From a virus (lineage: Duplodnaviria > Caudoviricetes): a DNA stretch of 52,656 bases. The stretch lies in IMG/VR virus record IMGVR_UViG_3300031801_000001, positions 1 to 52,656 of that record; one strand, 5' to 3'. Within the stretch, counting starts at the first letter, position 1; each line of letters starts with the position of its first letter. Under the pieces are notes generated by a model. That model saw only the letters and a list, made by a program, of their open reading frames with translations, searched no databases and was not told where the DNA came from. Shown here piece by piece: positions 1,164 to 15,063 of the stretch. The position numbers were made by a program, and so were the translations under genes.

Positions 1164-1370
1164 TTAGCTCTCGGAGACGATATCAATATGGAGGTGGCTG
1201 TAAAAGAGTGGAGGGCGAGTATCCCCCGCCCAGGCAACCTGAAGCGCGGCGGGGGCGGGTGGAGCGGCGGAGCCGCGCCGGGGCTGCACAGCGACAATCA
1301 GCCCCAACTTATTAAAGCCGGGATCGTTCTCGTGCAACATAATACCAACCACCAGATCTCCAACCTTCAC
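1164..1370 (-). CDS. Small SH3/KOW-like protein with GC-rich loop insert (GTG start)
   Basis: VKVGDLVV...LGLIVAV-[PRRGSAAPPAPAA]-LQVAW. Confidence 0.6.
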   Translation of the reverse strand: MKVGDLVVGIMLHENDPGFNKLGLIVAVQPRRGSAAPPAPAALQVAWAGDTRPPLFYSHLHIDIVSES

Positions 1371-1371
1371 G

Positions 1372-1467
1372 TTAGCGCCCTCGGCGGCGGTGGGGGGATG
1401 GCGGCTCAGTACCTCGGAGATAAAGTCCAAAACCAGCGGCAATCAACAAACTCAATCCAATTTCCAT
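1372..1467 (-). CDS. 31-aa hydrophobic mini-protein (not in ORF track)
   Basis: MEIGLSLLIAAGFGLYLRGTEPPSPHRRRGR*; its stop abuts the next start. Confidence 0.35.
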   Translation of the reverse strand: MEIGLSLLIAAGFGLYLRGTEPPSPHRRRGR

Positions 1468-1558
1468 TACGCAACCTTATGCAAGTAGAATGCCAACAAT
1501 GGCGAGAATCAATCCCCCAATGGAGATCAACAAAAATAGTTCAAGGATATGGTTTTAA

Positions 1559-1783
1559 TTAGGCTCGCTCAAGATCCTTCAAGTCAACCGATGGAATCCA
1601 AGGACTTCCTTGGGTCCATTGAACAATCGCCCACGGGCGGCGGCAGGCGGGCGGCGGCAGGAGCACATGGGTCGGGGTCAAGGCGGGGAGAATTTCAACA
1701 ATTAGCCCACAATTTTTATACTCTCCCTCTCCACCGCTATATCCCTTGATGCGGACAAGTTCTCCGGGTTTGAAGCTAGGCAC
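1559..1783 (-). CDS. Small SH3/KOW-like protein with GC-rich loop insert
   Basis: FKPGELVRI...CGLIVEI-[insert]-AIVQW. Confidence 0.6.
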   Translation of the reverse strand: MPSFKPGELVRIKGYSGGEGEYKNCGLIVEILPALTPTHVLLPPPACRRPWAIVQWTQGSPWIPSVDLKDLERA

Positions 1784-2009
1784 GCTCAAGATACCTTGAC
1801 CTAACATAGTTAGGATTTTCTAGTTCTGGGGTCCAGTTCCACTCAACCACGGCATAAGCTTCTCGGTCAACGCCGGGTCCACCATGCTGCGGACGATCCT
1901 TGTCGTATGGATAGAACTCCAAAACCAACCCATCGTAAGAATAGCGAAAGGGGAGATCCCCAATCGAGCGTACAATCTGCACCTTATCACCAGGCTTAAA
2001 TTCCGTCAT
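1776..2009 (-). CDS. Small SH3/KOW-like protein
   Basis: FKPGDKVQI...DGLVLE...AVVEW; ends LERA like its neighbour. Confidence 0.65.
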   Translation of the reverse strand: MTEFKPGDKVQIVRSIGDLPFRYSYDGLVLEFYPYDKDRPQHGGPGVDREAYAVVEWNWTPELENPNYVRSRYLERA

Positions 2010-3286
2010 TAACTCTTATCCTCGATTGAAATAACCCGCTCGTTAGTCTGGAAATAAGGGTTGCGAGCATATTGCGCCGTCGTCATCCACATACGCTGCG
2101 CACGGCTCTTGATCGGCTTCGGAGCGCACATATCAGTCAAAATGATATGCCCGTCAAAGTCACGCTCGTTAACGTACTTAGTAGGAGGATCGAAGTCCGT
2201 CCCGCCGTACCGCACACGCTCCCAGGGGCGGGTTTCGCCCTTTTTCCAAACATACACGCTTTCGGTAGCCACTTCGGAATCAAATGGGATAACCGTGAAT
2301 TCTGCGAGGGTGGAAAGCTTATTTAACTCCGTGAAGAAAGCCGCCAGCATTCCATCGTCCACAGAACCGGACTGATCGATGCTGATAGCAATCTTAGCCT
2401 GCCGGTTAACCTTGCGTCCAGGGTGAATGTACGGGAACCGCTTATTGAGTCTGCGCACCGTTGAGGACTTGCTAGCCCGCTGCGAGCATTTAATGAAGTA
2501 CCTCAAAACTTTCTTCCAATCCACACGGGGAGTTAGTCGATCCATGATCGCTTGCCGGGTGCTGGCAGTAATAGTGCCCCAAGAATTGGACTTCTGAGCC
2601 TCGCCAGCGGCTTTCTGGATGATATCCTTAATCCGCTCTTTGGCGATCTCGTTGGCGGCGGAGGCGGCGGGCGAACCGTCCCCGCCCCAATCGTCGTGGG
2701 AATCAAACTGGTCGGAAGGGCAAGTGCAAGTGCCCTCGCCCCCTTCGCCACCGTCACCGCCACTCTGGCAGTCGCCGTTACACTCGCCCTCGCCCTCGCC
2801 ACCCGGATTCTCGGGGAGGCGATCTAGATACCATTCCGCAGCCTCGAAGGGCGGAAGGTCCGCAAACGGTCCCTGACCGGGCATCAAACAGCCCTCGGGC
2901 AAATTGGAAAGGTGCGAGTTGATCGCCAAGTCGGTAGCATAATTCCACTTCTTATGATCAACGCCCTCGGGCTTGCGTCCGGTGACGTGATCGAAAACGA
3001 GGTGGTAAAACTCATGCTTAAGCACGTCAGCTTTCTGAAGATCCGTCATCTTTGCGAAGAAATCAGGATTGTAGAGCAATTCAAACTGAGCAGTCGTCGG
3101 ATTGACCCGAACGCCGGCAGTCGGAATGCCCTTATAGGGTGCCTTGTTGACACGCCGACTAATTGCGGCGAAAAACGGCTCATTCATGAGCAGGCGTGCA
3201 ACGTGCATATTGAGGTTAAATTCATCCTCGGGCGCTGTGGGCGCTTCGGAAGTCTCGGGGGCGGGCGTGGTTTCAATGTCTGACAT
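2009..3286 (-). CDS. DUF2201-type putative metallopeptidase with VWA-like domain (AAA ATPase partner)
   Basis: HEFYH (HExxH), WNYATDLAIN, IDQSGS MIDAS-like motif, GGTDF; start moved to MSDIET after AGGAAAGGA because the listed start lies inside the promoter. Confidence 0.85.
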   Translation of the reverse strand: MSDIETTPAPETSEAPTAPEDEFNLNMHVARLLMNEPFFAAISRRVNKAPYKGIPTAGVRVNPTTAQFELLYNPDFFAKMTDLQKADVLKHEFYHLVFDHVTGRKPEGVDHKKWNYATDLAINSHLSNLPEGCLMPGQGPFADLPPFEAAEWYLDRLPENPGGEGEGECNGDCQSGGDGGEGGEGTCTCPSDQFDSHDDWGGDGSPAASAANEIAKERIKDIIQKAAGEAQKSNSWGTITASTRQAIMDRLTPRVDWKKVLRYFIKCSQRASKSSTVRRLNKRFPYIHPGRKVNRQAKIAISIDQSGSVDDGMLAAFFTELNKLSTLAEFTVIPFDSEVATESVYVWKKGETRPWERVRYGGTDFDPPTKYVNERDFDGHIILTDMCAPKPIKSRAQRMWMTTAQYARNPYFQTNERVISIEDKS

Positions 3287-3308
3287 CGTGTTCCTTTCCT
3301 TCATACAT

Positions 3309-3337
3309 AATTTAAGTACGATCTCGGGGGTTGTCAA
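3309..3337 (-). promoter_or_regulatory. Sigma70-type early promoter
   Basis: TTGACA-N17-TAAATT. Confidence 0.8.
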
Positions 3338-3378
3338 CCCCTAAAATAATCTTTTTCTGCCCTCTGAGCGTTAAACGT

Positions 3379-3394
3379 TGGCACGGGGCTTGCA
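3379..3394 (+). promoter_or_regulatory. Sigma54 (RpoN) -24/-12 box
   Basis: TGGCACG-GGGC-TTGCA, full consensus, intergenic; a weaker opposing box TGGCATAAACCTTGAA lies at 3397-3412 (-). Confidence 0.6.
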
Positions 3395-3545
3395 AGTTCA
3401 AGGTTTATGCCAAATTCTATTATATCGCCTAAAAAAGCACAGAAAAAGCCCTCGCTTCGCTCGGGGTTAGTACCCTAAATATTCTATACAACTCCAATTT
3501 CCCACTTAACACCCATCATATACCATTCTGTCCCACTCACTCCCA

Positions 3546-3743
3546 TCAGATGACAATCAATTCATACTCATAAAAACTTACCTGATTCTCTTTAACAAGA
3601 ACATAATAAAAATCACTACCAGGAATTGTGTGTTTGATCCTTCTTATGACTAACCCTATTCTATTAGAGTGACAACCGTTCATATGTATAGATTTAATTC
3701 TTACAAGTGAACCGACCTTGATCTCTTTCTCTTTCTTCTCCAT
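3546..3743 (-). CDS. Small SH3/KOW-like protein
   Basis: EIKVGSLVRI...IGLVI...YYVLV. Confidence 0.65.
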   Translation of the reverse strand: MEKKEKEIKVGSLVRIKSIHMNGCHSNRIGLVIRRIKHTIPGSDFYYVLVKENQVSFYEYELIVI

Positions 3744-3860
3744 CAGATAACAGTCATTTACAATTCTGGAAACAATTGATATTCTATTATGTAAGACACT
3801 TACTCAACAGTCTACTCTTGCCAAGTCTCCTACTCTTATTTCTTTTGTTGTCTCGGGCAT
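3744..3860 (-). pseudogene. Degraded SH3/KOW-like paralog
   Basis: MPETTKEIRVGDLARVDC then in-frame TGA; same start context as the gene at 4046. Confidence 0.5.
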
Positions 3861-3863
3861 AAG

Positions 3864-4046
3864 TTAACTCAACAGTTCAACGCCACTCTTAGCATAAAAT
3901 TGTTTCACTCCAGAAGTAAGCAAAACATAAAATGTATTTTTAAACTCAATAGTTTCTAACACAAGTCCAATCTCTCCCGAGTATACATAAAGTTCAGTTA
4001 TTTTCACTAATGAACCAACTTTAATATCTTTTTGTGTCTCGGGCAT
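3864..4046 (-). CDS. Small SH3/KOW-like protein
   Basis: DIKVGSLVKI...IGLVLE. Confidence 0.65.
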   Translation of the reverse strand: MPETQKDIKVGSLVKITELYVYSGEIGLVLETIEFKNTFYVLLTSGVKQFYAKSGVELLS

Positions 4047-4049
4047 AAG

Positions 4050-4253
4050 TTAGCTCATAAACTCAAGTTCTTCGTTCTGAAACCATAGGCGCTCGTCATC
4101 AATCAAAACAATAAGTCCAGGGGGAGCAGCATCGCACCCAAATCCCATCACCAGTGCCAACGTGCCCACCCGATTCATATACTTAGTCACAGATGGTGAA
4201 TGTGTTATTTTCACAAGCGAACCAATCTTAATTTCTCTTTGTGTCTCGGACAC
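4050..4253 (-). CDS. Small SH3/KOW-like protein
   Basis: EIKIGSLVKI...LALVMG. Confidence 0.65.
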   Translation of the reverse strand: MSETQREIKIGSLVKITHSPSVTKYMNRVGTLALVMGFGCDAAPPGLIVLIDDERLWFQNEELEFMS

Positions 4254-4462
4254 TATCGTTTCACTAGAGGGAAGAATTTAAGTCCACTAAGAGCAGTGCT
4301 GTGGTTGTATTTATTATAAGTATTTCTCCACCGTTCACTACCGGGTGAGGTCCACAATACACTAATCTCATCAGAGTCAACACTCAAAATCAAACCCCAA
4401 GCATAGGTGTGTGCAGTATATTCAGAACGCAGCAAATCACCAATCTTATAATGCCTCATCAC
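4253..4462 (-). CDS. Small SH3/KOW-like protein
   Basis: YKIGDLLR...WGLILSV...ISVLW. Confidence 0.65.
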   Translation of the reverse strand: MMRHYKIGDLLRSEYTAHTYAWGLILSVDSDEISVLWTSPGSERWRNTYNKYNHSTALSGLKFFPLVKR

Positions 4463-4734
4463 TAATCAATTGCGTAAGAACAATCCGCTCCATACAGAAA
4501 GAAAATACTCTGTTCAAATTCAATGTCTCCATCGTTATCATATAGCTCGACAGTGAATCCATTGAGTCTAAAAACAACCACGGAGTTAGGCTCAACTGGA
4601 AACACAAAGTATCCGTTTTGAGACTCGCATACAATTTCTCCAGCTTCACGAAGATGGAATCCACCTTCAAGGAAGCTACAACCGCTTGTCAACAAAACAA
4701 GTATTGCCGCCGTTGCTGCAATAAACTTTCTCAT
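4462..4734 (-). CDS. Putative lipoprotein
   Basis: Signal peptide with lipobox LTSG-C; AGGAG RBS. Confidence 0.65.
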   Translation of the reverse strand: MRKFIAATAAILVLLTSGCSFLEGGFHLREAGEIVCESQNGYFVFPVEPNSVVVFRLNGFTVELYDNDGDIEFEQSIFFLYGADCSYAID

Positions 4735-5059
4735 ATCTTCTCTCCTATTGAAACTTAAACAATAACTCGATCACAATGTTTGTTTGCCAATAATCTTTAG
4801 TGTCATTCTTCTTGATTGTATAATACTCTTTGCGAGATATCTACACTAAATATCGCAAGCCTTTACAAACCTAGAGACATCGAAGCGGGGATTACTCCCC
4901 TGGAAACAAGATGCAAAAGCGAGTGCAACATCCCTGCGAGTGCAGTCTTTAGGGAGGACGGCGATCAGATTTGCGATAGTGATAAAATGTGTTCTAGTCA
5001 GCTTCATTTTCTTCTCTTCTCTCTCAAATTAAAAGGGGAATCGGAGGTAACCATCTGTC

Positions 5060-5728
5060 CTAAACACCCTTGACGATCTTAAGCTGCCGCTCCTCGACGG
5101 TAACCATTTTAGTTCCGCCGAACGGTAGCACCTTATACTTCTTTGCGCCCTTCGCCGCACTTGTAACGGGAGAAGCATCAGACTGAATCACGATCCCTCG
5201 CCAGCCAGCTACAAAGAAAGTTTTGAGTCCAGGCGAGCGTGCGGGAACCCGTAGCTCGACAACCGCACCATCCTTGAAAAGAGGCGGACCGTGGACGCCA
5301 GCTAGCACCTTGGCGGCGTACTTGTTGCCGCACATAGCCTTGTAAGCCTTCTCAGTCGGCACAAAGTCAGGATCCGTCAGGACACGATCTGCGAGATCGG
5401 AGAAATATGGAGGATTTGCCTTGTAAAACGAAGCGCAGATCTTAGCGATTTTACGCTCGGGATCACCATAGCTCGCCTTCCAAGTCGCTGAAGAGGCGAG
5501 GGCAGCAGCAGAAAACTTTTGCTCATTCTTGACGAAGATATCAAATTGGCGCTGAGTCAAACCGCCATATTTATTGAATCCCTCAAGAATCGAAGTAGAG
5601 AAATTGCGAGTCCAATCGTCAACGTGAGGATTGTCCCTCAGCGCCTCAATACGAGCCTTGAGGGCGTCGCTCTTAAGGTGCGCAGACTTCTCAACCGGCG
5701 TGCGACGACGGTAACCGTAATAACTCAT
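5060..5728 (-). CDS. Hypothetical protein with C-terminal SH3-like domain; paralog of 27656-28435
   Basis: Shared IAxICAxxY and KKYKVLPFGxTKM motifs; start MSYYG via TAATG coupling. Confidence 0.75.
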   Translation of the reverse strand: MSYYGYRRRTPVEKSAHLKSDALKARIEALRDNPHVDDWTRNFSTSILEGFNKYGGLTQRQFDIFVKNEQKFSAAALASSATWKASYGDPERKIAKICASFYKANPPYFSDLADRVLTDPDFVPTEKAYKAMCGNKYAAKVLAGVHGPPLFKDGAVVELRVPARSPGLKTFFVAGWRGIVIQSDASPVTSAAKGAKKYKVLPFGGTKMVTVEERQLKIVKGV

Positions 5729-5892
5729 TAATTGTTGTCCTGAGCCGAAAGGCGACAAACATTCTTATTGAACTGACGCAACGAGCGGGAGAACGCCTTG
5801 CGGGCGTACTTGTAATCCACACCCGAACAATGGCGGCGTTCAATCTTTGCGATGTTAGCCTCGGAACGGGCTTTGGCGAGTTTGCTATCCAT
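5728..5892 (-). CDS. 54-aa basic protein (not in ORF track)
   Basis: MDSKLAKARSEANIAKIERR...QDNN*; follows a promoter and GGAGG; TAATG-coupled to the next gene. Confidence 0.6.
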   Translation of the reverse strand: MDSKLAKARSEANIAKIERRHCSGVDYKYARKAFSRSLRQFNKNVCRLSAQDNN

Positions 5893-5918
5893 AACTGATC
5901 ATTCCTCCCTGTACCTAT

Positions 5919-5947
5919 AATATAAGTACGATCACGGTCAAGGTCAA
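5919..5947 (-). promoter_or_regulatory. Sigma70-type early promoter
   Basis: TTGACC-N17-TATATT. Confidence 0.75.
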
Positions 5948-5963
5948 CCCCTAAAAATGATTA

Positions 5964-6197
5964 TTATTCAATCTTGATCAAATGGTTTTCAATTTCATAA
6001 TTGATCGAGCCACCTTGCCAAAGAATATTAAATCCCCGGCGGTTGTCGTAGTCGGCGCGGCAAACGATGATCAAGCCGATTCCCTTAGTTTTCATAAATT
6101 TCACCACACGCTCAGCGTCATTATCAAAGACAATGTTGAGCGCATCGGCATCGTAAACGACGGTATCGCCAACGTTGATCGTGCTACTCTCCCTCAC
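5964..6197 (-). CDS. Small SH3/KOW-like protein, probably leaderless
   Basis: INVGDTVVY...IGLIIV...NILW. Confidence 0.65.
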   Translation of the reverse strand: MRESSTINVGDTVVYDADALNIVFDNDAERVVKFMKTKGIGLIIVCRADYDNRRGFNILWQGGSINYEIENHLIKIE

Positions 6198-6203
6198 GCA
6201 TAT

Positions 6204-6231
6204 AATTTAAGTACGATCTTGAGAAAGTCAA
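6204..6231 (-). promoter_or_regulatory. Sigma70-type early promoter
   Basis: TTGACT-N16-TAAATT. Confidence 0.75.
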
Positions 6232-6251
6232 GGGGTTAAATTGAATTCTTT

Positions 6252-6488
6252 TTAGATCTCGACAAGAAAATCTGTGTACTCCCAATAAATCTTTCCGTTC
6301 CAAAGAACTTCAACCCAATTATTAGTGAGCCCAGGGCGAGGAGGGCGAGGGCGAGGGCGAGGAAGGCGAGGGAGAGGGAACCGGAGGCGCTGGCGTCGGA
6401 CCGGCTCCGTCAAAACCAATCCACAACCAAACTCTTTCGTGTCGTCTTCAAAGCATTTAGGATTGAATTCAACCAGATTACCAATCAC
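6252..6488 (-). CDS. SH3-like variable-insert paralog A
   Basis: FGCGLVLTEP-[26-aa Pro/Arg loop]-NNWVEVLW. Confidence 0.7.
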   Translation of the reverse strand: MIGNLVEFNPKCFEDDTKEFGCGLVLTEPVRRQRLRFPLPRLPRPRPRPPRPGLTNNWVEVLWNGKIYWEYTDFLVEI

Positions 6489-6790
6489 GAAACAACCTCA
6501 AGATTACAGCACCACTCCAAAGTTTCAACTCCGATCTGCCACAGGACTTTTATGCTACGACAGGAAAGTCTTATCTCGTGGCGGGGTCCGTCCCTAACAA
6601 ACCTTTCAACGTTCCGAAGATCATCGAACATCCAAAGTCGAGGCTCAGAAAGTGCCAAGCCATGTTGGGGAAGCAAAACGGTCGAATAAATTACAGTATC
6701 ACCGTACCTATAGGGATGGAGAAATTCAAGACTCTTTGCACGTTTCGACCACGTTACCAAATTACCGGGTTGCATGATTATTTCCCTCAA
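6485..6790 (-). CDS. SH3/KOW-like protein related to paralogs A-D
   Basis: PGNLVTW...GLALSEP...IKVLW. Confidence 0.6.
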   Translation of the reverse strand: MREIIMQPGNLVTWSKRAKSLEFLHPYRYGDTVIYSTVLLPQHGLALSEPRLWMFDDLRNVERFVRDGPRHEIRLSCRSIKVLWQIGVETLEWCCNLEVVS

Positions 6791-6842
6791 AGAAAGGTGG
6801 GGCGAGGGGAAATGAGGGAGGGAGTTTAAATCCCCCCGCCCC
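6790..6842 (-). terminator. Probable intrinsic terminator after the AAA ATPase
   Basis: GGGGCGGGGGGA...TCCCCTCGCCCC stem followed by ACCTTTCTTT on the minus strand. Confidence 0.5.
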
Positions 6843-6850
6843 GTTTAATT

Positions 6851-7942
6851 CTACTCCTTCTCGGTGTCGGTATCGTCGCCCTGGAGCATTGTGACCATGT
6901 ACTCCCCGACAACCGTACCATCGGCAGCAGTCGCCTTGTGGAGTGCGATCACGTTCTCCTGATTGCCGCAGTTACCAACCACCGTCCAAAGCTTCATGGC
7001 GACCTCTGAGGGCAGCGTCACGAAATAGCTGGCGAGGTTAGTCACCTGATCAGAGGAAAGCACCTCTCCGAAGCAACCGTGAGCCTCAAGCTTATCGACC
7101 ATCGCCGTGTGCTGATTGATCTCAAAGTCGGCAGTCTTGGCGAGATCGCCGTGATCGAGGATATCCTCTACCGTCACCTGACGCTCATACTCACGCACAA
7201 AGTCATTAAAAGCGATGGCACCCTCAAACCCAACAAACGAAGCCGCAAGCTGGTAAAGAGTCTCACCGGACTCTTCAAGCAAGTTAGCCGGGGCGGCGCA
7301 CTTATTGAAGCGGTCCCAAGAACGGCGGGAGGGGTAAACCTTATTTGGCTCAAACTCGCCCGCGTGCTCAAGGTGCTGGCGGTTCTGGTTAATGAAATCC
7401 CAGATCACACCGTCAACCTTGTTCTTAGCCCAATCCAGCCAATCTTCAACGGACGGCTCAACATCGAAAACCGCATAGCGGTCCAACTCTGCCGGATCCA
7501 TCTCGGACACCTGATACTGGGCTCCGTGCTCACCGCCGTTGATTGCGGCAAAGATCAGAGTACCAGGGTGTACTTCATTGCCGGCGATCTTGCGAGAGTC
7601 GCACAACTCAAAAATGCCCTGGCGAACCTCCGTGGTCGCACGGTCAACCTCGTCCAAGAAAAGGACAACGGGGGACTCGCACGCTTCGGCAAACCAATCG
7701 GGGCTGTTCCAGCTAGTCCGATTGCCATCGGTGGACGGCAAACCCAAGAGATCGCCCTCAGTCATTTGCGACGCTCGGCGCTCGACGACGGGCAGCCCGA
7801 TCTGATTAGCGAAAGCGTAGACAACGGCGGATTTACCGATGCCGTGGCGTCCACGGATCAGAACCGGGAAAACCGCTTCGTCGTCAGTGTTAGTGACCAG
7901 AGGCACGATTGCGTGAAAAGTCTTAAAGTCAATAGCTGCCAT
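6851..7942 (-). CDS. MoxR-like/AAA_5 AAA+ ATPase
   Basis: Walker A GRHGIGKS, Walker B VLFLDEVDRA, sensor AAIN, MDPAELDR, PSRRSW. Confidence 0.9.
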   Translation of the reverse strand: MAAIDFKTFHAIVPLVTNTDDEAVFPVLIRGRHGIGKSAVVYAFANQIGLPVVERRASQMTEGDLLGLPSTDGNRTSWNSPDWFAEACESPVVLFLDEVDRATTEVRQGIFELCDSRKIAGNEVHPGTLIFAAINGGEHGAQYQVSEMDPAELDRYAVFDVEPSVEDWLDWAKNKVDGVIWDFINQNRQHLEHAGEFEPNKVYPSRRSWDRFNKCAAPANLLEESGETLYQLAASFVGFEGAIAFNDFVREYERQVTVEDILDHGDLAKTADFEINQHTAMVDKLEAHGCFGEVLSSDQVTNLASYFVTLPSEVAMKLWTVVGNCGNQENVIALHKATAADGTVVGEYMVTMLQGDDTDTEKE

Positions 7943-7970
7943 GTTTTCTCTCTCTCCCTGTTACCTATAT

Positions 7971-7999
7971 AATTTAAGGACGATTTGAGGGTTTGTCAA
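7971..7999 (-). promoter_or_regulatory. Sigma70-type early promoter
   Basis: TTGACA-N17-TAAATT; core identical to the copies at 9380 and 10376. Confidence 0.85.
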
Positions 8000-8013
8000 C
8001 CCCCTAAATCAAT

Positions 8014-8121
8014 TTAATTTGTACCCTCAAGGGCATCCACAAGCTGCGCTACAAACAAGTTAAGATTAGGAGCCAAGGCAACCCAACCAAGAATCAGAAC
8101 AGCAGCGACATGAAGCATCAT
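8014..8121 (-). CDS. 35-aa hydrophobic mini-protein (not in ORF track)
   Basis: MMLHVAAVLILGWVALAPNLNLFVAQLVDALEGTN*; fills the gap between two promoters. Confidence 0.45.
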   Translation of the reverse strand: MMLHVAAVLILGWVALAPNLNLFVAQLVDALEGTN

Positions 8122-8166
8122 TTATCATCCAAGTTTGGAGAAGTTCATTCTCCCCCCCGTACATAT

Positions 8167-8195
8167 AATTTAAGTACGATCCGGGGGTAAGTCAA
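8167..8195 (-). promoter_or_regulatory. Sigma70-type early promoter
   Basis: TTGACT-N17-TAAATT. Confidence 0.8.
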
Positions 8196-8214
8196 CCCCC
8201 AAACTGAAAATAGT

Positions 8215-8421
8215 TTAGTTATCCTCGGGTAGTTTCCACCGGCGCTCTTGGCGCAGATACAGGAACGAGCGAAGATCCCAAGCGAAAGCGAGGGCAATGA
8301 TCGTTCCGCCGATGAGTAGCCCCAAAGATGAGGTAGGTTCAAGGATCAGAATTCCAACGGCACAACCAACTAGAAAGTTATCCAAATATTTGCTACAAAA
8401 CTCTCGTACAAAATTAATCAC
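8215..8421 (-). CDS. Small membrane protein
   Basis: Two hydrophobic segments; overlaps the upstream stop. Confidence 0.55.
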   Translation of the reverse strand: MINFVREFCSKYLDNFLVGCAVGILILEPTSSLGLLIGGTIIALAFAWDLRSFLYLRQERRWKLPEDN

Positions 8422-8665
8422 TTTCTACCCCAACTACATAATCAACGTACTCGCAAAAAACCTTGCCATCCCAAAGGACTTCAACCCAATTATCGGTGGG
8501 GCGAGGGCGAGGGAACCGAGGGCGAGGGTGAGGGTGAGGGTGCCACCGAGGGCGAAGGCGAAGGCGAGGGCGAGGGCTTGGCTCCGTCAAAACCAATCCA
8601 CAACCAAACTCTTTCATATCACCCTCAAAATATTTACAGTTGTACTGTACAAGCCTGCCGATCAC
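8414..8665 (-). CDS. SH3-like variable-insert paralog B (GTG start)
   Basis: FGCGLVLTEP-[28 aa]-DNWVEVLW. Confidence 0.7.
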   Translation of the reverse strand: MIGRLVQYNCKYFEGDMKEFGCGLVLTEPSPRPRLRLRPRWHPHPHPRPRFPRPRPTDNWVEVLWDGKVFCEYVDYVVGVESD

Positions 8666-8669
8666 GATT

Positions 8670-9350
8670 TTACTTCCGCTTAAAAAGTTTATCAACCGGA
8701 GCCGTATCGTTGACGAAACCTGCCGGGGGGGCAAAAGGTGTGGAAGAGGGAGAAACGATATCAATAAGCGCCTCTCCGCACGCCGCCCAGCTTCCCTTGA
8801 TCAAAACCGTCTCGCCATCCATTCCGAACATATCCGGGGGATCGATAGATACTTTCCGATCAAAACGGATCATTTCCCTAGCTTTAAAAAGGCGCACCTT
8901 GCCGCCAGAAAGAGCCGCCGTGCAAAAATCCCAATGAATACCAGTCAAGAAAAACAGGCGATCATTGCCAGCGTGGTCCCATCCGTGCTGCGGCATCTTA
9001 ACCAAAGCACCGGGACCGATCCCATCACGCTCAAGGCACGCCACAAAGTCAGCACGCCACTTACGGCTAGCAGCCAAATGCGCAATCTTATCACTCTTGA
9101 GCCGCTTGCAAGTGCGCCGGTTATGCCCGGTGGCTTTATTCCGATCTTTCCAATCTAGCACGAGGACACAGTAGGAGCATTTGCGGGGGGCACGATCATT
9201 CTTTCGCTGGATTGCTTTCTCTGCGCCATAATCCCACTCAACCTCGCCACTCTCAAGTTTGCGGACCCGCTCCAAAAGGGAGGGGCACGTCGCCCGGTTA
9301 TGTCCGGTGGCACTACAATTGCTACAACGGCTTGGGTAGCGAAAACTCAT
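8670..9350 (-). CDS. Double CCHC Zn-knuckle protein, paralog 1
   Basis: CSNCSATGHNRATC (C-x2-C-x4-H-x4-C), CSYC...GHNRRTC, GIGPGAL. Confidence 0.8.
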   Translation of the reverse strand: MSFRYPSRCSNCSATGHNRATCPSLLERVRKLESGEVEWDYGAEKAIQRKNDRAPRKCSYCVLVLDWKDRNKATGHNRRTCKRLKSDKIAHLAASRKWRADFVACLERDGIGPGALVKMPQHGWDHAGNDRLFFLTGIHWDFCTAALSGGKVRLFKAREMIRFDRKVSIDPPDMFGMDGETVLIKGSWAACGEALIDIVSPSSTPFAPPAGFVNDTAPVDKLFKRK

Positions 9351-9379
9351 TCTTTAATCCCTCTCCTGTCTACTCATAT

Positions 9380-9408
9380 AATTTAAGGACGATTTGAGGG
9401 TTTGTCAA
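9380..9408 (-). promoter_or_regulatory. Sigma70-type early promoter
   Basis: TTGACA-N17-TAAATT; 9375-9422 is identical to 10371-10418. Confidence 0.85.
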
Positions 9409-9428
9409 GGGGTTAAATTGAATTCTTT

Positions 9429-9671
9429 TTAGATCTCGACAAGAAAATCTACAAACTCCCAATAAATCTTTCCGTTCCAAAGAACTTTAACCCAATTGTC
9501 AGTAGGGTGAGGGTGAGGAAGGCGAGGGCGAGGGTGAGGGAGAAGGCGAGGGTGAGGGTGAGGGCGAGGGACCGGGCGAGGGCTTGGCTCCGTCAGAACC
9601 AATCCACAACCAAACCCTTTTATATCACCCTCAAAATATTTACAGTTGTACTGTACAAGCCTGCCGATCAC
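9429..9671 (-). CDS. SH3-like variable-insert paralog C (GTG start)
   Basis: FGCGLVLTEP-[28 aa]-DNWVKVLW. Confidence 0.7.
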   Translation of the reverse strand: MIGRLVQYNCKYFEGDIKGFGCGLVLTEPSPRPVPRPHPHPRLLPHPRPRLPHPHPTDNWVKVLWNGKIYWEFVDFLVEI

Positions 9672-9681
9672 GATCCGACCC

Positions 9682-10347
9682 CTAAACTGTGAAAAACTCT
9701 TCAACGGGCGTCGGGTCATCAACAAACCCAACCGGGGGAATAAACGTCAGTTTAGATGGCGAAGCAACCTTGATGTTGCTAGCGCCGCAATCGAGGCTGC
9801 TCATTTTGGTTAGCGGAGTTACGCCGTCCATACCGAACATATCAGGAAGGGCAATACTGGTCGTGCGATGGAATTTATCCATCGAGCGGACCGTCAAAGC
9901 GATAATCTTATTTTTAGCCTGCTCAGGCGTGCAACGATCCCACAAAAGATCGACCGCAAAGTAGAGCATAGAACCCTGAGGTTCTGCCGAACGGGGAACC
10001 CTAATCAAAGCACCGGGACCGATCCCGTCACGCTCAAGGGCATTCAGGAAATCACCACGCCAAGTACGAAATTCCGCCAGCTTGGTAACCTTATCACTCT
10101 TGAGTCGCTTGCAAGTGCGCCGGTTATGACCTGACGCAAGCTCGCGCCAGTCGAGGAAGCGGGTGCAATAAGAGCATTTATTCGGGCGTCTCCCCGCCTT
10201 TCGGCGGATCGCTTGCGAGGCACTATAATCATAATCGATTTCGCCACTCTCAAGTTTGCGGACCCGCTCTTTGAGTTCGGGGCACGTTGTCCGGTTATGC
10301 CCGGTGGTATCACAATTGCCGCAACGACTTGGATAACGAAAGCTCAT
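9682..10347 (-). CDS. Double CCHC Zn-knuckle protein, paralog 2
   Basis: CGNCDTTGHNRTTC; CSYC...GHNRRTC. Confidence 0.8.
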   Translation of the reverse strand: MSFRYPSRCGNCDTTGHNRTTCPELKERVRKLESGEIDYDYSASQAIRRKAGRRPNKCSYCTRFLDWRELASGHNRRTCKRLKSDKVTKLAEFRTWRGDFLNALERDGIGPGALIRVPRSAEPQGSMLYFAVDLLWDRCTPEQAKNKIIALTVRSMDKFHRTTSIALPDMFGMDGVTPLTKMSSLDCGASNIKVASPSKLTFIPPVGFVDDPTPVEEFFTV

Positions 10348-10375
10348 ACTTAGTGTATCTCCTGTCTACCCATAT

Positions 10376-10404
10376 AATTTAAGGACGATTTGAGGGTTTG
10401 TCAA
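10376..10404 (-). promoter_or_regulatory. Sigma70-type early promoter
   Basis: TTGACA-N17-TAAATT. Confidence 0.85.
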
Positions 10405-10441
10405 GGGGTTAAATTGAACTTTTTTAATTGATCGAATTCAA

Positions 10442-10630
10442 TCACGGTCGAAGCTTGGATGCAATTTCAAGTTCCTTGCTGGAAAATTCACATTCATTTT
10501 CCTCGCCAGAAACCCACGTTACCAAATAAGATGTGCGAACCATATCATTTACCACTTCACGGACCACGCCAAGATCAGAGCGGGTGGCATTATAGCAAAT
10601 GAACGTTACCAAATCTCCAACCTCAATCAT
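10442..10630 (-). CDS. Small SH3/KOW-like protein
   Basis: MIEVGDLVTF...LGVVREV...YLVTW. Confidence 0.65.
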   Translation of the reverse strand: MIEVGDLVTFICYNATRSDLGVVREVVNDMVRTSYLVTWVSGEENECEFSSKELEIASKLRP

Positions 10631-10633
10631 TTT

Positions 10634-11356
10634 TTACTTCTTGAGATCGAAAATTGCCTTAACCGGCGCAGGATCATCATAAAATTCCTCAGGAACTTCA
10701 AACTCCAAAGTCGAAGGACTAGCAATGCTCCACTTGCTCTCGCCAAATTCCCGCCACTGCTCCCTGGTCAATTCAGTCTTGCCGTCCATTCCCAAAAGGT
10801 CAGGAGTACCCACGGTGCAACGCTGATTAAACTCAGTCATAGCTCGACCTTCAAAAATAGCGTTGCGGGGGTTCCCGATCCGAGAATATAGGCAATGTTC
10901 CCACTTGATTTTATCAAGGAAATAAAGCTTCGACGGGCGGTGATAACGAGATTTTGGATCGTCAAGATCCTCGCCAATCCACTTAATGATCGCGCCGGGA
11001 CCGAGCCCCTCACGTTTCAGAACCCTTACGAAATCCTTGCGCCAAGCCGTATTCCTTTTAATATCCTCAGCTAAATCAACCTTGAGGGTGGCGCAACTTC
11101 GGCGGTTATGCCCGATAGCCTTGTGCTGGTCATCATAATCGAGGATGCAACGGCAGTAGCTACATTTACGCTTGATTGTCGCATTCTTACGGCGGATCTT
11201 GCGCTCTTTCTCGCAGGTAGCGGCGTAATCGTATTCAACCTCGCCCTCGTCAAGCTTGCGGATCCGCTCAGTCATTGTAGGGCAAGTTGTCCTGTTATGT
11301 CCCTTGTCGAAACAAATTCCACAACGGGGGCGGCGGCGACCACTATAATAACTCAC
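10634..11356 (-). CDS. Double CCHC Zn-knuckle protein, paralog 3
   Basis: CGICFDKGHNRTTC; CSYC...GHNRRSC; GLGPGAI. Confidence 0.8.
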   Translation of the reverse strand: MSYYSGRRRPRCGICFDKGHNRTTCPTMTERIRKLDEGEVEYDYAATCEKERKIRRKNATIKRKCSYCRCILDYDDQHKAIGHNRRSCATLKVDLAEDIKRNTAWRKDFVRVLKREGLGPGAIIKWIGEDLDDPKSRYHRPSKLYFLDKIKWEHCLYSRIGNPRNAIFEGRAMTEFNQRCTVGTPDLLGMDGKTELTREQWREFGESKWSIASPSTLEFEVPEEFYDDPAPVKAIFDLKK

Positions 11357-11384
11357 GCTTATCTATTCTCCTGTCTACCCATAT

Positions 11385-11413
11385 AATTTAAGAACGATTT
11401 ACCTAAAGGTCAA
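11385..11413 (-). promoter_or_regulatory. Sigma70-type early promoter
   Basis: TTGACC-N17-TAAATT. Confidence 0.8.
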
Positions 11414-11604
11414 GGGGTAAAACCAATTTTGTTGAAAGAATATTCTGACTCGATCTTGGTTTTAATCTTGCATGAAGCGCATACAGTATAAATAGAATTA
11501 TTCACGATATGAGCCTTGTACAAATAACGTGCCATATTCCAAGAGCCAACAAACCCTACGAGTCCAACGACGCCGAGAGTAGAAAGTGCAGTAATTGTAA
11601 ACAT
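11410..11604 (-). CDS. Small membrane-anchored protein
   Basis: N-terminal hydrophobic helix, CxxC. Confidence 0.5.
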   Translation of the reverse strand: MFTITALSTLGVVGLVGFVGSWNMARYLYKAHIVNNSIYTVCASCKIKTKIESEYSFNKIGFTP

Positions 11605-11808
11605 TTATAGCATCTTAAAGCAATTAGATGGAATTGTAAATGACTTCCCGCCGTTTACATAAATTCTGTAAAGTTTTGTTCCTCTTCTCCCAATTTTAAC
11701 TTCTTCAATGATTACACAGAGAACACCTGAATTAATCTTTGGATATCGTCCCTCAAGGCTAGGCGTTAGAGGAATAGGAACATTAAATTCAACCAATTTT
11801 TCGATCAT
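11605..11808 (-). CDS. Small SH3-like protein
   Basis: MIEKLVEFN...LCVIIEE...YRIYV. Confidence 0.55.
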   Translation of the reverse strand: MIEKLVEFNVPIPLTPSLEGRYPKINSGVLCVIIEEVKIGRRGTKLYRIYVNGGKSFTIPSNCFKML

Positions 11809-12053
11809 TCTTTGATCTCGGCAAGATAATTTGCGTACTCGCAAAAAACCTTGCCATCCCAAAGGACTTCAACCCAATTATCGGTGGGGCGAGGTCGACC
11901 CTGGTGAGAGCGAGGGCGAGGGCGAGGGCGAGGGTGGAGGCGAGGGCGAGGGAGAAGGAGAGGGCTTGGCTCCGTCAAAACCAATCCACAACCAAACTCT
12001 TTCATATCACCCTCAAAAAACTTGGAATTGAACTGAACAAGCTTGCCGATCAT
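11805..12053 (-). CDS. SH3-like variable-insert paralog D
   Basis: GGAGG RBS; FGCGLVLTEP-[28 aa]-DNWVEVLW. Confidence 0.7.
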   Translation of the reverse strand: MIGKLVQFNSKFFEGDMKEFGCGLVLTEPSPLLLPRPRLHPRPRPRPRSHQGRPRPTDNWVEVLWDGKVFCEYANYLAEIKE

Positions 12054-12068
12054 CTTTCCTCCACCCAT

Positions 12069-12097
12069 AATATAAGCACCCTCAACCCCAAAGTCAA
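12069..12097 (-). promoter_or_regulatory. Sigma70-type early promoter
   Basis: TTGACT-N17-TATATT. Confidence 0.8.
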
Positions 12098-12122
12098 GAG
12101 GGCAAATCAAAAAACTTTATAA

Positions 12123-12205
12123 AACAAGAAACGTGCCAAGCTTCAACCAGATCCAACCTCACGCATATAAAAGAATGACGCACGCGCGTAGCAAGAAATG
12201 TGCCA
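12123..12205 (-). promoter_or_regulatory. Two tandem sigma54 -24/-12 boxes
   Basis: TGGCACATTTCTTGCT (12205-12190) and TGGCACGTTTCTTGTT (12138-12123) in the divergent intergenic region. Confidence 0.6.
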
Positions 12206-12225
12206 AAAAAAGATCATTTAACCTC

Positions 12226-12253
12226 TTGACTTAACGAAACGACGACTTATATT
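12226..12253 (+). promoter_or_regulatory. Sigma70-type promoter, divergent
   Basis: TTGACT-N16-TATATT. Confidence 0.7.
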
Positions 12254-12259
12254 ATAGAG

Positions 12260-12475
12260 GTGACAAGTGTAACCAATGATTATCTAAAAAATGGCACCCT
12301 TGTTCGGTGGCATAACGATTTCATTACAAAAGACCTACCTATAAAATCATATCTTGGCACCGTTCTTAATGTACGCGCAACGGAAGGAGGGCTTCCTGAA
12401 TATAAAATCTTATGGGCTGTCGATGGTAGAATTGACTGGACTAATTCGATCTCGGAATATGAGATTGTAGCATGA
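12260..12475 (+). CDS. Small SH3/KOW-like protein
   Basis: KNGTLVRW...LGTVLNV...YKILW. Confidence 0.65.
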   Translation: MTSVTNDYLKNGTLVRWHNDFITKDLPIKSYLGTVLNVRATEGGLPEYKILWAVDGRIDWTNSISEYEIVA

Positions 12476-12669
12476 ACCAAAAATATAAGATCGGTGTTCT
12501 CGTTCGATGGCACAATAACGAACTAAGTGAAGATCTACCCGACGATTCATATCTCGGCTTGGTTGTTGATACGGAAAACTCTTTAGGCAATCCTGACATT
12601 AAAGTTCTTTGGAATGATGGACTTTCTTCATGGTGTTATGCTGACGGGGATTTTGAGATTTTGTCGTGA
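12472..12669 (+). CDS. Small SH3/KOW-like protein, paralog of the previous gene
   Basis: KIGVLVRWHN...SYLGLVV...IKVLW. Confidence 0.65.
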   Translation: MNQKYKIGVLVRWHNNELSEDLPDDSYLGLVVDTENSLGNPDIKVLWNDGLSSWCYADGDFEILS

Positions 12670-12809
12670 GCAATAAAATCAAAGTTGGGGATCTTGTCTC
12701 AAGTCTAGATAATTCAAGTGCGCGAGTTCTTTGGAACGATGGAAAAATTAGTTATATCTGGTCAGATGAGGATTTGTTAAGCCCAAATTACGAACTTTTA
12801 GTCCCTTGA
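12666..12809 (+). CDS. Shortened SH3/KOW-like protein, 47 aa (not in ORF track)
   Basis: IKVGDLVSS...RVLWNDG. Confidence 0.5.
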   Translation: MSNKIKVGDLVSSLDNSSARVLWNDGKISYIWSDEDLLSPNYELLVP

Positions 12810-12834
12810 CAACTCCAACTTTCATGCTTATATT
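12806..12834 (+). promoter_or_regulatory. Sigma70-type promoter
   Basis: TTGACA-N17-TATATT. Confidence 0.8.
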
Positions 12835-12920
12835 ATACACATGGAAGAAACATTTTCACTTTTTACTTTTTTCATTGTCCTCGGAACATTTTGGTTCGAG
12901 TTGACTCAGGAAGATAACTA

Positions 12921-13616
12921 ATGCGTTGTTCTTATTGCTGGAATCGTGAAGGTCATAACCGGCTTGGATGCCCGAAACGAAAAGCAATTATTATTGCCAA
13001 CCCTGACGGGTGGGAAGCAACTAGGGAAGCCCAACGACAAACTGCACTCACGAAGCGCAAATGCTCTTATTGCCGAAAGGTTACCCGGCAAGGGACCGAA
13101 AAAGAGCAAGCAAGCGCATTTGGGCACAACCGACGTAGCTGCAAAAAACTCGCAACTGCCTCTGCAAAAGCCAAAAAGCTTTGCCGTAAGTGGCGACAAG
13201 ATCTTAAAGATACCTGCAAAACGGAAGGCGTAGGAGTGGGTGCGTTACTTAGCGTTCCTCAAGATGAATGGTCTAATAATGGAGAATACACACCCACTAG
13301 GAGACTATTGCTCGTAACGGGAATCAGCTTTACAACATGGGATCATCAAGAGCTTAACCACGAAAGCGCAAATACAGATATGAGGTGCAATCCCTGGATT
13401 ATTCAAGGACGATGGGTTCACAACAACCAAAAAGGATCTTCCAAATTTCCAAAACTTATTCATTCTGATTATGAAAGTGGATTTCTACTTTCTGAGGCAA
13501 GCAAAAGCCATTTTGGTTCAGAAGGATGTACAATTGTAGCCCCATCTAAGGGAGAGCTTGGCTTTACCGATAGCTGGATCAACGATGAAAAAGCGGTTGA
13601 TCATCTTTTCAGGTAG
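12921..13616 (+). CDS. Double CCHC Zn-knuckle protein, paralog 4 (divergent)
   Basis: CSYCWNREGHNRLGC; CSYC...GHNRRSC; GVGVGALL. Confidence 0.8.
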   Translation: MRCSYCWNREGHNRLGCPKRKAIIIANPDGWEATREAQRQTALTKRKCSYCRKVTRQGTEKEQASAFGHNRRSCKKLATASAKAKKLCRKWRQDLKDTCKTEGVGVGALLSVPQDEWSNNGEYTPTRRLLLVTGISFTTWDHQELNHESANTDMRCNPWIIQGRWVHNNQKGSSKFPKLIHSDYESGFLLSEASKSHFGSEGCTIVAPSKGELGFTDSWINDEKAVDHLFR

Positions 13617-13685
13617 AATTAACGGAAAAATCGTTTGGCTCAACCGATCAAGTTTTAAGGTTTTGGAAAACGACCCAAATCAGTA

Positions 13686-15063
13686 ATGCGCAAAATCCCT
13701 AACAAATCCGAACTTTCCTACAGTGGTCTAATCGTGGGAGATCTCGTATACGCATACGATCCTGAGGATGATGCAATTGCTAACGGGGATAGGGGTATTA
13801 TTATTGAGTTGATTGAAGAAGTTGATGCGGTTCAAGTTCATTGGACTCGCCGGAAAGAAGTTAAGGCTGAGAGTTGTGAAAATCTTTATTGTCCTCGATT
13901 GAATTAGCTGATGAAAAATTTGTTAAAGATTGGTTCAATTATTGAATATTCTGTTAATGACGCTCCCGTAGATGTTGGAATCGTCATTAACCAAACCGCA
14001 ATAAACAACGAATTTGCAGTATGGAGAGTGTGGTTTGCGGCAGGGGAAAAGTTTCATTATATCAACGAAACTTGGTTTTACGAACGCTACCGTTTGATTC
14101 AAAAATAGGTTTTTGATTTTATGTCTCGCGAAAAATTCAAGGTTGGTCAGTTAGTTAGACATCGTAGTTGGAGTTATGGCTTTGGATTAGTTATTGGTTT
14201 TGACCACGACGGAGATCCGACAATTGCGTGGAATAGTGGAGAAACTTCTTCAGAGTGGTATTCTCACGTTTTAATTGTTTCAGATATTTCATAGGTTTTT
14301 GATTTTATGTCTCGCGAAAAATTCAAGGTTGGTCAGTTAGTGCGTTTTCCAGCGAATCGCTGGAAATTTCTAGCGAAAGATAATAAACGTAATTACGATA
14401 AAATTGAATCATTAATTGGTTTAGTTGTAAGACTCAGAAAGCCTGACAATGCTCCAGTTGTTTTTTGGAATAATGAAAGAACTTATCAAGCGGATCCATA
14501 CGCCATTGAAGTTATCTCAGACGTTCCATAGGGTTTTGGATTTTGGAAAAAATTAAAGTTGGAGCTTTGGTTAAAATTACCACTGCAACAGACTGGTTTG
14601 GGATTTGCATTGTTTTGGAAATTCATGAGAAAAGCGGGGCAGCGTGGATGAAGCATCCAACAGCAAAAATCTGGACAAAGCACGGAATTCGTCATAAGAT
14701 TGTGCAAGATTTAGAACTTGTTAGATAATAAATTCAAGGTTGGAGATCTTATTGTTGGAAACATCAAACAATACAAATTATTTATTTGGGATGAAGATGA
14801 ATTCAATTATTATGTTGTTGATGTTGAAAATTCGTTGAAACAATGGATTATGTTTAAGTCCTTGACAGATGATAGCTATGAAAAAATCTAAGTTTAAAAT
14901 TGGTGACTTGGTTGTCTACGATGCAAATAAAACCACAATATGGGAAAGAGAAAAGCAACTTATTGGAATAATAATTGAAACGTTCATCAAAACAAGTCTT
15001 ATTTACTGGAACAACCGAAAAAGACATCACGAACATAACGATTACCTAAAAGTTATCTCATAA
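13686..15063 (+). CDS. Tandem run of six small SH3/KOW-like genes (13686-13907, 13911-14108, 14121-14294, 14307-14531, 14543-14728, 14869-15063)
   Basis: Each has K/IVGxLV...GLV/GII...V-x-W; 14121-14294 (MSREKFKVGQLVRH...) is absent from the ORF track. Confidence 0.65.
14105..14341 (+). repeat. 51-bp exact direct repeat (14105-14155 and 14291-14341)
   Basis: ATAGGTTTTTGATTTTATGTCTCGCGAAAAATTCAAGGTTGGTCAGTTAGT occurs twice. Confidence 0.9.

Follow-up and report, generated by a model that had tools for sequence, protein, structure and literature searches.

An opposite-strand Gly-Glu codon signature in hexanucleotide arrays within small paralogous phage genes

We describe here a codon signature found in four small paralogous genes, A-D, of a phage known from the IMG/VR record IMGVR_UViG_3300031801_000001. 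The whole 52,656-bp viral record (G000; estimated completeness about 29%) was analysed and is referred to below as the window. Each of the four genes bears, between conserved flanks, an imperfect array of six-nucleotide units that is translated into an irregular peptide, while the opposite strand of the same array reads as a string of Gly and Glu codons, and the substitutions in the array follow the degeneracy of this opposite strand. The antisense Gly-Glu signature is real and robust, and it is present in every homolog for which DNA was available (10/10 arrays). If the peptide were all that selection acted on, the sense wobble positions could not be frozen while the second codon positions vary. 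An opposite-strand codon signature in a translated segment, present across a family, is in our view a new form of coding-repeat evolution, and a literature search at the level of listings and abstract openings revealed no report of such a signature.

Anatomy of the arrays and their codon signature

Genes A-D are minus-strand paralogs of about 78-83 amino acids (aa), with 64-67% identity to A in the alignment, and they consist of invariant blocks on either side of a variable middle (flanks GCGLVLTEP and T[DN]NWV[EK]VLW). Gene A (6252..6488, minus strand, 78 aa; identical to the public protein P0002) encodes a predicted SH3-like barrel with a loop rich in Pro, Arg and Leu, and its (GARGGN)-type array occupies 78 nucleotides (nt) at 6324..6401 on the plus strand; the gene-proximal third of this array is degenerate, reading VRRQRLRF in sense and GTGGAGVG in antisense. 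In gene B (8414..8665, minus strand, about 83 aa) the array of 84 nt lies at 8495..8578 (plus strand) and gives GEGEGTEGEGEGEGATEGEGEGEGEG in the antisense frame. Gene C (9429..9671, minus strand, 80 aa) holds an array of the same length at 9501..9584 (plus strand; antisense frame GEGEEGEGEGEGEGEGEGEGEGPGEG). Both B and C most likely start with GTG (at 8665 and 9671, respectively), and not at the upstream TTG of the mechanical list of open reading frames (ORFs), both starts being placed by alignment with A and D, and that of B with C as well. Gene D (11805..12053, minus strand, 82 aa; identical to the public protein P0008) starts with ATG, and its 84-nt array is located at 11883..11966 (plus strand; antisense frame GEVDPGESEGEGEGEGGGEGEGEGEG).

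The flanks, ORFs and insert coordinates had been given in an earlier note on this DNA (the original prediction), and all of them were found just as it had given them, with inserts of 78, 84, 84 and 84 nt. The Gly-Glu strings that it quoted were exactly reproduced in frame f2 of the plus strand, and the sense frame of the inserts indeed gives peptides composed mainly of Pro, Arg, His and Leu (P/R/H/L). Tandem Repeats Finder (TRF) detected a period of 6 at all four inserts, which are imperfect arrays of GARGGN on the plus strand with a GC content of 0.70-0.75.

Ten distinct arrays could be compared at the DNA level, i.e. the four arrays of the window and six from five metagenome contigs. In public metagenome contigs the gene is present at six loci, two of them with the same sequence and one with a second partial copy. 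The flanks vary as expected of a normal sense-frame gene: variable sites at codon positions 1, 2 and 3 number 10, 9 and 21 (27 codons, 8 sequences), and the mean pairwise difference between homologs at wobble positions is 10.4/27 (about 39%). In the arrays, 243 of the 265 antisense-frame codons are Gly or Glu. The two-fold degeneracy of Glu is respected (GAG 83, GAA 35, GAC 2, GAT 0) and all four Gly codons are in use (GGC 68, GGT 32, GGA 17, GGG 8). In the sense frame, the wobble is almost frozen, with CCT in 78/94 Pro codons, CGC in 65/73 Arg codons and CAC in 26/26 His codons, as opposed to 0.25, 0.31 and 0.59, respectively, in the neighbouring genes, while the second codon positions switch freely between Pro and Leu and among Arg, His, Leu and Pro. 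A translated segment thus keeps the degeneracy signature of the untranslated strand although the synonymous divergence of its flanks amounts to about 40%.

The excess of antisense-synonymous variation over chance, which had been proposed in the original prediction, was borne out when the sense peptides were recoded with the regional codon usage, 2000 times each: the observed antisense Gly/Glu content was never reached in any of the ten arrays (observed fraction 0.68-0.85, recoding maxima 0.61-0.75). It also sets the arrays apart from true Pro-Arg arrays. Among 117 IMG/VR loci with six CCNCGN units, Pro-Arg was the longest open frame in 18, of which 16 vary at the Pro wobble with unchanged amino acids; we count this opposite behaviour in favour of the arrays being DNA of the Gly-Glu-linker type in inverted orientation.

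Arrays of the CCN-CGA type are widespread in IMG/VR (L131-L244). A single base in each six is hypervariable while the second wobble site is always an A, and depending on the contig the arrays lie in Pro-Arg, Thr-X, X-Asp, Gly-Arg, Val-X or Ser-X frames. As the frames differ, position-specific variability that ignores the frame is not unique to this window.

The usage of the phantom codons, i.e. those of the frames that are read here without being the frame of the gene, was compared with that of the real genes of the region. Phantom Glu is GAG at a frequency of 0.70 versus 0.69 in the real genes, and phantom Gly follows the rank order GGC>GGT>GGA>GGG, as it does in the genes of the region. The interruptions of the arrays are A, T, P, S, D, V, Q, K and R when read in the Gly-Glu frame, and W, F, C and Y when read in sense; the former are residues of the linker type, and this too was counted for DNA of the Gly-Glu-linker kind.

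One might suppose that a second frame is translated, either as an opposite-strand Gly-Glu peptide or, after a -1 slip on C-CCU-C, as a Pro-Ser stretch on the same strand, but we consider this very improbable. On one hand, no array contains a stop in its antisense Gly-Glu frame; positions 3 and 6 are variable in the Pro-Ser frame too, where one or two stops follow within 1-6 codons of the array end (12 arrays examined). On the other hand, neither frame has a conserved start, and the variation of the flanks follows the sense frame only. At A (TAG TGA) and at C (TAG), moreover, stop codons immediately upstream of the array close the Gly-Glu frame. An antisense gene was rejected on these grounds, and the original prediction had likewise held that this frame is not a gene. 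As to the Pro-Ser frame, four-fold degenerate Pro codons would be expected there, yet only CCC and CCT are found (2/120 otherwise versus about 46 expected, p 5e-22), and the phantom Ser usage is opposite to the real usage of the region; without a start and with misfitting phantom codons, it was rejected as an ORF as well.

Arrays of this kind were also found in a second family, at locus L044 (5800-10300) of a 275,542-bp phage record (G001, 87% complete; locus GC 0.33). Some ten small, translationally coupled paralogs follow one another at this locus, with a 'MIF(D/E)..' start and a '..G(V/I)(V/I)I' end; they are apparently unrelated to A-D. Two members carry an array that reads His/Leu/Pro in sense and gives a perfect Gly-Glu antisense frame, and a third paralog is decayed. 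As this locus was found via the pattern itself, it is not independent evidence for the pattern, but two contrasts within the locus are independent. In a recent pair of paralogs there are 0/10 sense-wobble differences in the array versus 7/10 in the flanks (Fisher p 0.003). The decayed array has drifted to the genome-preferred CAT, CCA and AGA, whereas the intact arrays keep CAC and CCT, with CAC in 100% of their His codons and a CAT preference of 25:6 in the nearby genes.

The family, its loop and the turnover of the arrays

A model of the fold was built with AlphaFold2 from 14 family sequences, with a mean predicted local distance difference test (pLDDT) score of 77.9. It predicts a small barrel of five strands (residues 5-8, 23-25, 60-65, 68-73 and 77-79), in which the insert forms a low-confidence loop between the second and third strands (23-25 and 60-65), i.e. 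a beta2-beta3 loop. When this model was compared with 48,161 solved chains, the leading matches were all SH3-like small barrels (eL14, KOW, Tudor, NdhS, YorP). The best Z score was 5.2, for 6zu5_LM0 (root mean square deviation, rmsd, 1.8 over 50 aligned residues) and for the KOW domain 5oho_B (rmsd 1.6 over 45 aligned residues), and YorP (2heq) gave 4.6. The model thus supports an SH3-like small barrel for A-D at the level of the fold only, with Z scores too low for a named family. Neither Pfam (E up to 1) nor PHROG (E up to 0.01) contains a family that matches any of the four proteins, and the nearest clusters in the ESM Atlas are viral hypothetical proteins of 65-72 aa with scores below 0.9, which should be taken as leads only. 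A-D share the predicted five-strand fold with known SH3-like small barrels, such as KOW, Tudor, ribosomal eL14, NdhS/PsaE-like proteins and YorP of a Bacillus prophage, but within the searches made the array-encoded loop has no counterpart there.

In all 14 family proteins the loop is found at the same place, is net positive and consists of P/R/H/L at 72-93%, and in all of them the array is held in a single orientation and frame. The idea of a variable peptide display, one of several functions suggested in the original prediction, is compatible with this anatomy, in which the insert is predicted to be the loop of an SH3-like barrel. The near-fixed insert length reported there applies to the four window copies only; across the family the loop is 25-47 residues long, so that a size-constrained slot is not supported. 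Bac7 and oncocin are proline-arginine-rich antimicrobial peptides that the loop resembles in composition, with PRP runs in a cationic Pro-rich stretch, but here the stretch would be an internal loop of a folded intracellular protein, its residues are not conserved, and it does not evolve as a selected peptide. Pro-Arg-Pro motifs are mentioned in one publication (PMC11678341). The signature cautions against taking repeat-rich peptides such as PRPRP at face value.

Relatives of A-D are few. An exhaustive profile search returned 6 proteins within an E limit of 0.001, including P0007 (1588 aa), whose match is one of low complexity, and a word-indexed search returned 13 proteins at the same threshold among 8000 scored candidates. 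According to public protein records, members of the family are encoded on contigs of 88,059 and 166,429 bp. No further family members were found in IMG/VR, either by protein patterns or by a DNA pattern of the flanks, nor in 185,579 species genomes. In Logan contigs the phage is present at low depth in several seawater samples, with near-identical sequence outside the arrays. In four seawater runs, unrelated contigs pile up on arrays B and C to a summed depth of 2000-3000x, while the bins of A and D are near zero; arrays of such kind must thus be very common in co-occurring organisms. In the same four runs, the Logan contigs of the phage end at the arrays (8389-8587 and 9384-9582), with hundreds of unrelated GC-rich contigs aligning there. 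No array-bridging Logan contig was found among the pieces listed, no RNA run was among the listed holders of the sequence, and assemblies of this phage group likely break at the array loops.

The arrays exchange segments. The arrays of B and D are unrelated although the flanks on their two sides are identical over about 57 and 75 nt, A and C present a similar situation, and in the 11 codons that precede the array the wobble bases are identical in all four window copies, which indicates gene conversion among the paralogs. Near-identical strains differ only by multi-base patches in the array (L005 versus P0004, L007 versus P0005), and P0013 is mosaic-like, with the start of its loop as in P0012 and the end as in P0010. 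It follows from these patches and from the mosaic loop that segments are exchanged among the arrays of the family. A comparable arrangement is known from cassette gene conversion into an expressed slot, as in pilin or VlsE-type antigenic variation, where constant flanks likewise enclose variable mosaic interiors and several copies are present per genome. Here, however, no silent donor cassettes were found, the gene is an early phage gene and not one for a surface antigen, and ordinary Gly-Glu linker DNA, read from the opposite strand, would have to act as the donor.

Could the array instead be a coding microsatellite that was born in place from a CCTCGC seed? In this case the sense loop would be selected, concerted evolution would erase wobble variants, and diversifying selection among Pro/Leu and Arg/His/Leu/Pro would appear as second-codon-position changes, with the Gly-Glu pattern being a by-product of the genetic code. 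Several observations would fit: the loops are invariably cationic and of the same P/R/H/L composition, their length varies, TRF reported higher-order periods of 18 and 21 in C and A, and the paralog flanks beside the arrays are homogenised, so gene conversion is active. With concerted evolution there would be two effective wobble sites per lineage, which makes their invariance less improbable (estimate about 0.05-0.1), and the preference for the His codon at position 6 in the second family, contrary to the Gly usage of the genome, suggests that the sense residue matters. The order of the units speaks against this idea. It is random in the ten arrays, with 109 adjacent pairs of the same wobble state versus 108.8 +/- 5.8 in permutations (p 0.52), so there is no excess of identical neighbour units. 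Moreover, CTT, CAC, CTC and CCC are frequent in all lineages, although homogenisation should either fix or lose them, and Pro and Arg are often replaced by Leu, which is a radical change, while the milder first-position changes (to Ser, Ala, Thr or Gly) are rare. The wobble difference between array and flanks in the paralog pair of the second family, and the exclusive use of CAC in a genome that prefers CAT, are hard to reconcile with this scenario too. We therefore regard an origin in place as doubtful, albeit worth keeping in mind.

The original prediction had proposed that homologous cassettes be checked for slippage in 6-nt steps. Length does vary among them, yet with the states ordered randomly along the arrays, recent slippage with homogenisation is not the explanation of the frozen sense wobble. 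Coding microsatellites and contingency loci of bacteria and phages are, like the arrays, short tandem repeats within an ORF whose length differs among relatives. Here, in contrast, the 6-nt unit precludes on/off frameshifting, the units show no trace of recent slippage, and the substitutions follow the degeneracy of the opposite strand.

Several paralogs with a hypervariable slot between unchanging flanks, and with all four bases occurring at one site of each unit, would also be the picture left by a diversity-generating retroelement or a similar templated mutator, since such elements likewise produce a hypervariable patch between conserved flanks of a phage protein. This explanation is scarcely credible here. 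Reverse transcriptase (PF00078) was found neither in G000 (itself about 29% complete) nor in G001, with the control genomes being positive, no invariant template copy is present in the window, and the variation, C/T at one of the sites and any of G/A/T/C at the second, is not adenine-specific. The protein is, besides, a predicted small barrel.

Possible origins of the signature

The explanation that we favour, if only tentatively and at less than even confidence, takes the arrays to be inverted DNA of the Gly-Glu-linker type. Repeated exchange of patches would keep them in this state, and the variable cationic loop that they encode would be tolerated. In this scenario, A-D would be small barrel proteins made early in infection, with the beta2-beta3 loop encoded by an imperfect hexanucleotide array, in which DNA of the Gly-Glu-linker type would sit inverted. 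The interior of the array would be overwritten patchwise via homology-driven exchange with like arrays, including those of the paralogs, and the ultimate source of the patches might be truly Gly-Glu-coding arrays in the DNA of co-resident phages or of the host. The barrel would tolerate, and perhaps exploit, any stop-free cationic loop that results.

Genuine Gly-Glu-coding donors would presumably feed the pool for such exchange. We sampled at least 120 IMG/VR loci with six GARGGN units. Among the loci listed, the longest open frame of at least 100 aa over the array was E/G in 67, P/S in 22 and A/F or A/L in 9, while in 8 it was shorter than 100 aa; a longest open frame is, of course, not proof of a gene. 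True Gly-Glu arrays are thus common in viral contigs, and together with the 2000-3000x depth in seawater this was counted in favour of an exchange pool.

Nevertheless, several points weigh against inverted linker DNA renewed by exchange. The searches found no donor: an exact 34-mer from array D has 0 matches in the 185,579 species genomes, two patterns made from the non-repetitive portions of arrays D and A, degenerate for Gly-Glu, have 0 matches in IMG/VR, and the longest exact matches of the arrays to real Gly-Glu arrays (119 IMG/VR loci) beat wobble-randomised controls in only 2 of 10 arrays. Capture of DNA from the host, as put forward in the original prediction, thus gained no support from either pattern search, and with the other 8 arrays matching no better than their randomised versions, neither did the expected closeness of the inserts to real Gly-Glu arrays. 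The second family brings two further difficulties. No other array of this type occurs in its 275-kb record (87% complete), so any donor would have to be external, and its phantom Gly usage (GGT in 24/33 codons of the arrays versus 16/67 in the neighbouring genes) is unlike that of its own genes, which suggests either that the sense residue (His) is selected or that the donor is an unknown one. In addition, the single orientation and frame in all 14 proteins are explained equally simply by a constraint acting in situ, and ectopic exchange between imperfect 6-base repeats must outpace mutation at about 28 sense-wobble sites per array, at a rate that is assumed.

The window itself offers little as a source. 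Its sole other array-like stretch, truly Gly-Glu-coding, lies at 2781..2800 (minus strand), where three GGCGAG units encode GGEGEGE inside a 442-aa gene (2009-3337, minus strand). This stretch is 18-20 nt long and is not conserved in the L007 homolog, which is a further point against the favoured explanation, and the 442-aa gene was rejected both as a target and as a donor. The protein matches phrog_1314, labelled 'HNH endonuclease' in PHROGs, and its gene lies near that of a MoxR-type ATPase. It was noted to have a HEFYH motif and a linker rich in Cys, Gly, Glu and Asp that differs between the window and L007.

The constraint in situ just mentioned would act on nucleic acid: a tract of 80-140 nt (NCCYUC repeated in the sense RNA) would be selected for complementarity to (GARGGN)n, with the loop as a by-product. 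It could be directed, as a generic antisense, against Gly-Glu-linker mRNAs of the host or of phages, or it could provide a repeated CCYUC motif for the binding of a protein or RNA. This single assumption covers the whole pattern and fits as well as the exchange of inverted linker DNA does. The four fixed bases of the unit would pair with G, A, G and G, position 3 (C or U) pairs with G in either state, and position 6 is free. A donor becomes unnecessary, and old arrays with randomly ordered wobble states would suit the idea, as would the presence of four copies with promoter-like sites enriched on the gene strand and the abundance of Gly-Glu-type arrays in co-occurring seawater organisms. In the second family, the decayed paralog drifted while the intact arrays kept CAC and CCT, as if only the latter were constrained. 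However, neither a target nor a function can be named for the tract, the Gly-Glu stretch of the window being short and not conserved. There were no Rfam matches over 4500-13800 (0 at E up to 1), and folding of 8400-8700 gave a z of 0.28, i.e. nothing unusual. In a tract of some 100 nt the selection on any single base would be very weak, the free position 6 should drift towards the local composition, yet it is C/T-rich on the plus strand, and there is no account of why an in-frame antisense tract should lie within the conserved loop of all 14 members. On balance, we find such a constraint unlikely.

A special form of it, in which the 80-140-nt tract in early mRNAs would act as a generic antisense element, in any six-base register, against many host transcripts with (GE)n linkers, and the loop would be its translated shadow, seems to us more unlikely still; complementarity is evident only as a generic match to any (GARGGN)n.

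Each of these possibilities would have its consequences. If exchange of inverted linker DNA is what takes place, then low-complexity linker DNA moves between genes, strands and frames fast enough to outrun mutation, and such mobility would bear on the origin of phage 'ORFan' proteins and of disordered loops. If, on the other hand, a constraint is at work, then a function at the level of the nucleic acid is hidden within a coding loop. Either would be new for phage early genes.

Neighbouring genes and the setting of the record

The window looks like two compositional compartments within one phage record. GC content is 0.45-0.52 in positions 1-13600 and 0.36-0.41 in 13600-52656, and codon usage is clearly unlike between this left arm and the rest: the codons of the former are GC-rich (Glu GAG 0.69, Arg CGC/CGT), while the remainder prefers GAA for Glu (0.63) and AGA for Arg (0.53). 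Genes A-D with their arrays sit in the GC-richer arm, amid many small minus-strand genes. Matches to sigma-70-like promoters are enriched in this arm (26 versus 9.9 +/- 2.8 in shuffles), as the original prediction of promoters would have it, but being the product of a consensus scan they are pattern matches only. A promoter-like match of the form TTGACA-17-TAAATT recurs on the gene strand; such matches were found upstream of D (12069..12097, minus strand) and, in similar form, at 10376-10404, 9380-9408, 7971-7999, 11385-11413 and 8667-8695. No inverted repeats of an invertible segment were seen in the array flanks upon inspection by eye, with no dedicated repeat search having been run.

Three of the neighbouring minus-strand genes are, according to the alignment, paralogs of one another and encode proteins with knuckle-like motifs. 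A gene for a protein of 226 aa (8670..9350) lies directly upstream of B and one for its 221-aa paralog (9682..10347) directly upstream of C, while a 240-aa copy (10634..11356) is followed by a small ORF of 62 aa without an array (10442-10630). D does not directly follow a knuckle paralog, as two other small ORFs lie between it and the 240-aa copy. A fourth paralog (231 aa, 12921..13616) is located on the plus strand. In the proteins of this family (221-240 aa), two knuckle-like motifs of the Cys-Cys-His-Cys type are accompanied by a long helix and, at the C-terminus, by a domain resembling a small barrel; in the model of the 226-aa protein (pLDDT 81.9) the barrel matches of this domain are weak (Z at most 5.3). 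The C-X2-C-X4-H-X4-C spacing is kept in the four window copies and in that of L006, while the first motif of L009 is three residues longer. No Pfam or PHROG family was matched above threshold, zf-CCHC_2 of Pfam reaching 13-18 bits under a cut-off of 27. Genes of this family stand beside small barrel genes in three contigs (L006 226-942 and L009 4905-5621 besides the window).

Between B and A lies a gene for a MoxR-type AAA ATPase (6851..7942, minus strand; Pfam AAA_5 at E 4.9e-9, phrog_1297 at E 2.4e-47), and between this gene and A there is a small ORF of 101 aa (6485..6790, minus strand). Judged by eye, the N- and C-terminal pattern of the latter is that of A-D, but about 30 aa of non-repetitive sequence are inserted at the same place. 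The gene arrangements around A, B and C recur in the related contigs L005 and L006, that of ATPase gene and small ORF being seen in L005. Small ORFs without arrays were also seen elsewhere, i.e. at 5964-6197, 6485-6790 and 10442-10630 on the minus strand, at 12260-12475, 12472-12669 and 12666-12809 on the plus strand, and in numbers in L007, L008 and L010. They share, by eye, the pattern '(V/I)GDLV ... (V/I)LW.G ... E(I/V)' with different loops and look like relatives of A-D.

As to the phage itself, no close relative was detected when positions 5000-13700 were compared by megablast with 50,697 phage records. Its minus-strand genes for a GroEL-like chaperonin (29610-31178), a DnaE-type polymerase (40279-43731), a transfer RNA nucleotidyltransferase (16502-17734) and the large subunit of ribonucleotide reductase (48034-50442) form a set that suggests a large phage. 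The polymerase is at most 30% identical to its counterparts in the best ten of 1435 matching phage records, and all 1435 fall in the band below 60% identity. A protein of 334 aa (45562-46566, minus strand) matches phrog_1211 (E 3.4e-72), for which PHROGs gives the label '2-aminooxy adenylosuccinate synthetase', and which may correspond to the PurZ-type enzyme of phages with 2-aminoadenine DNA.

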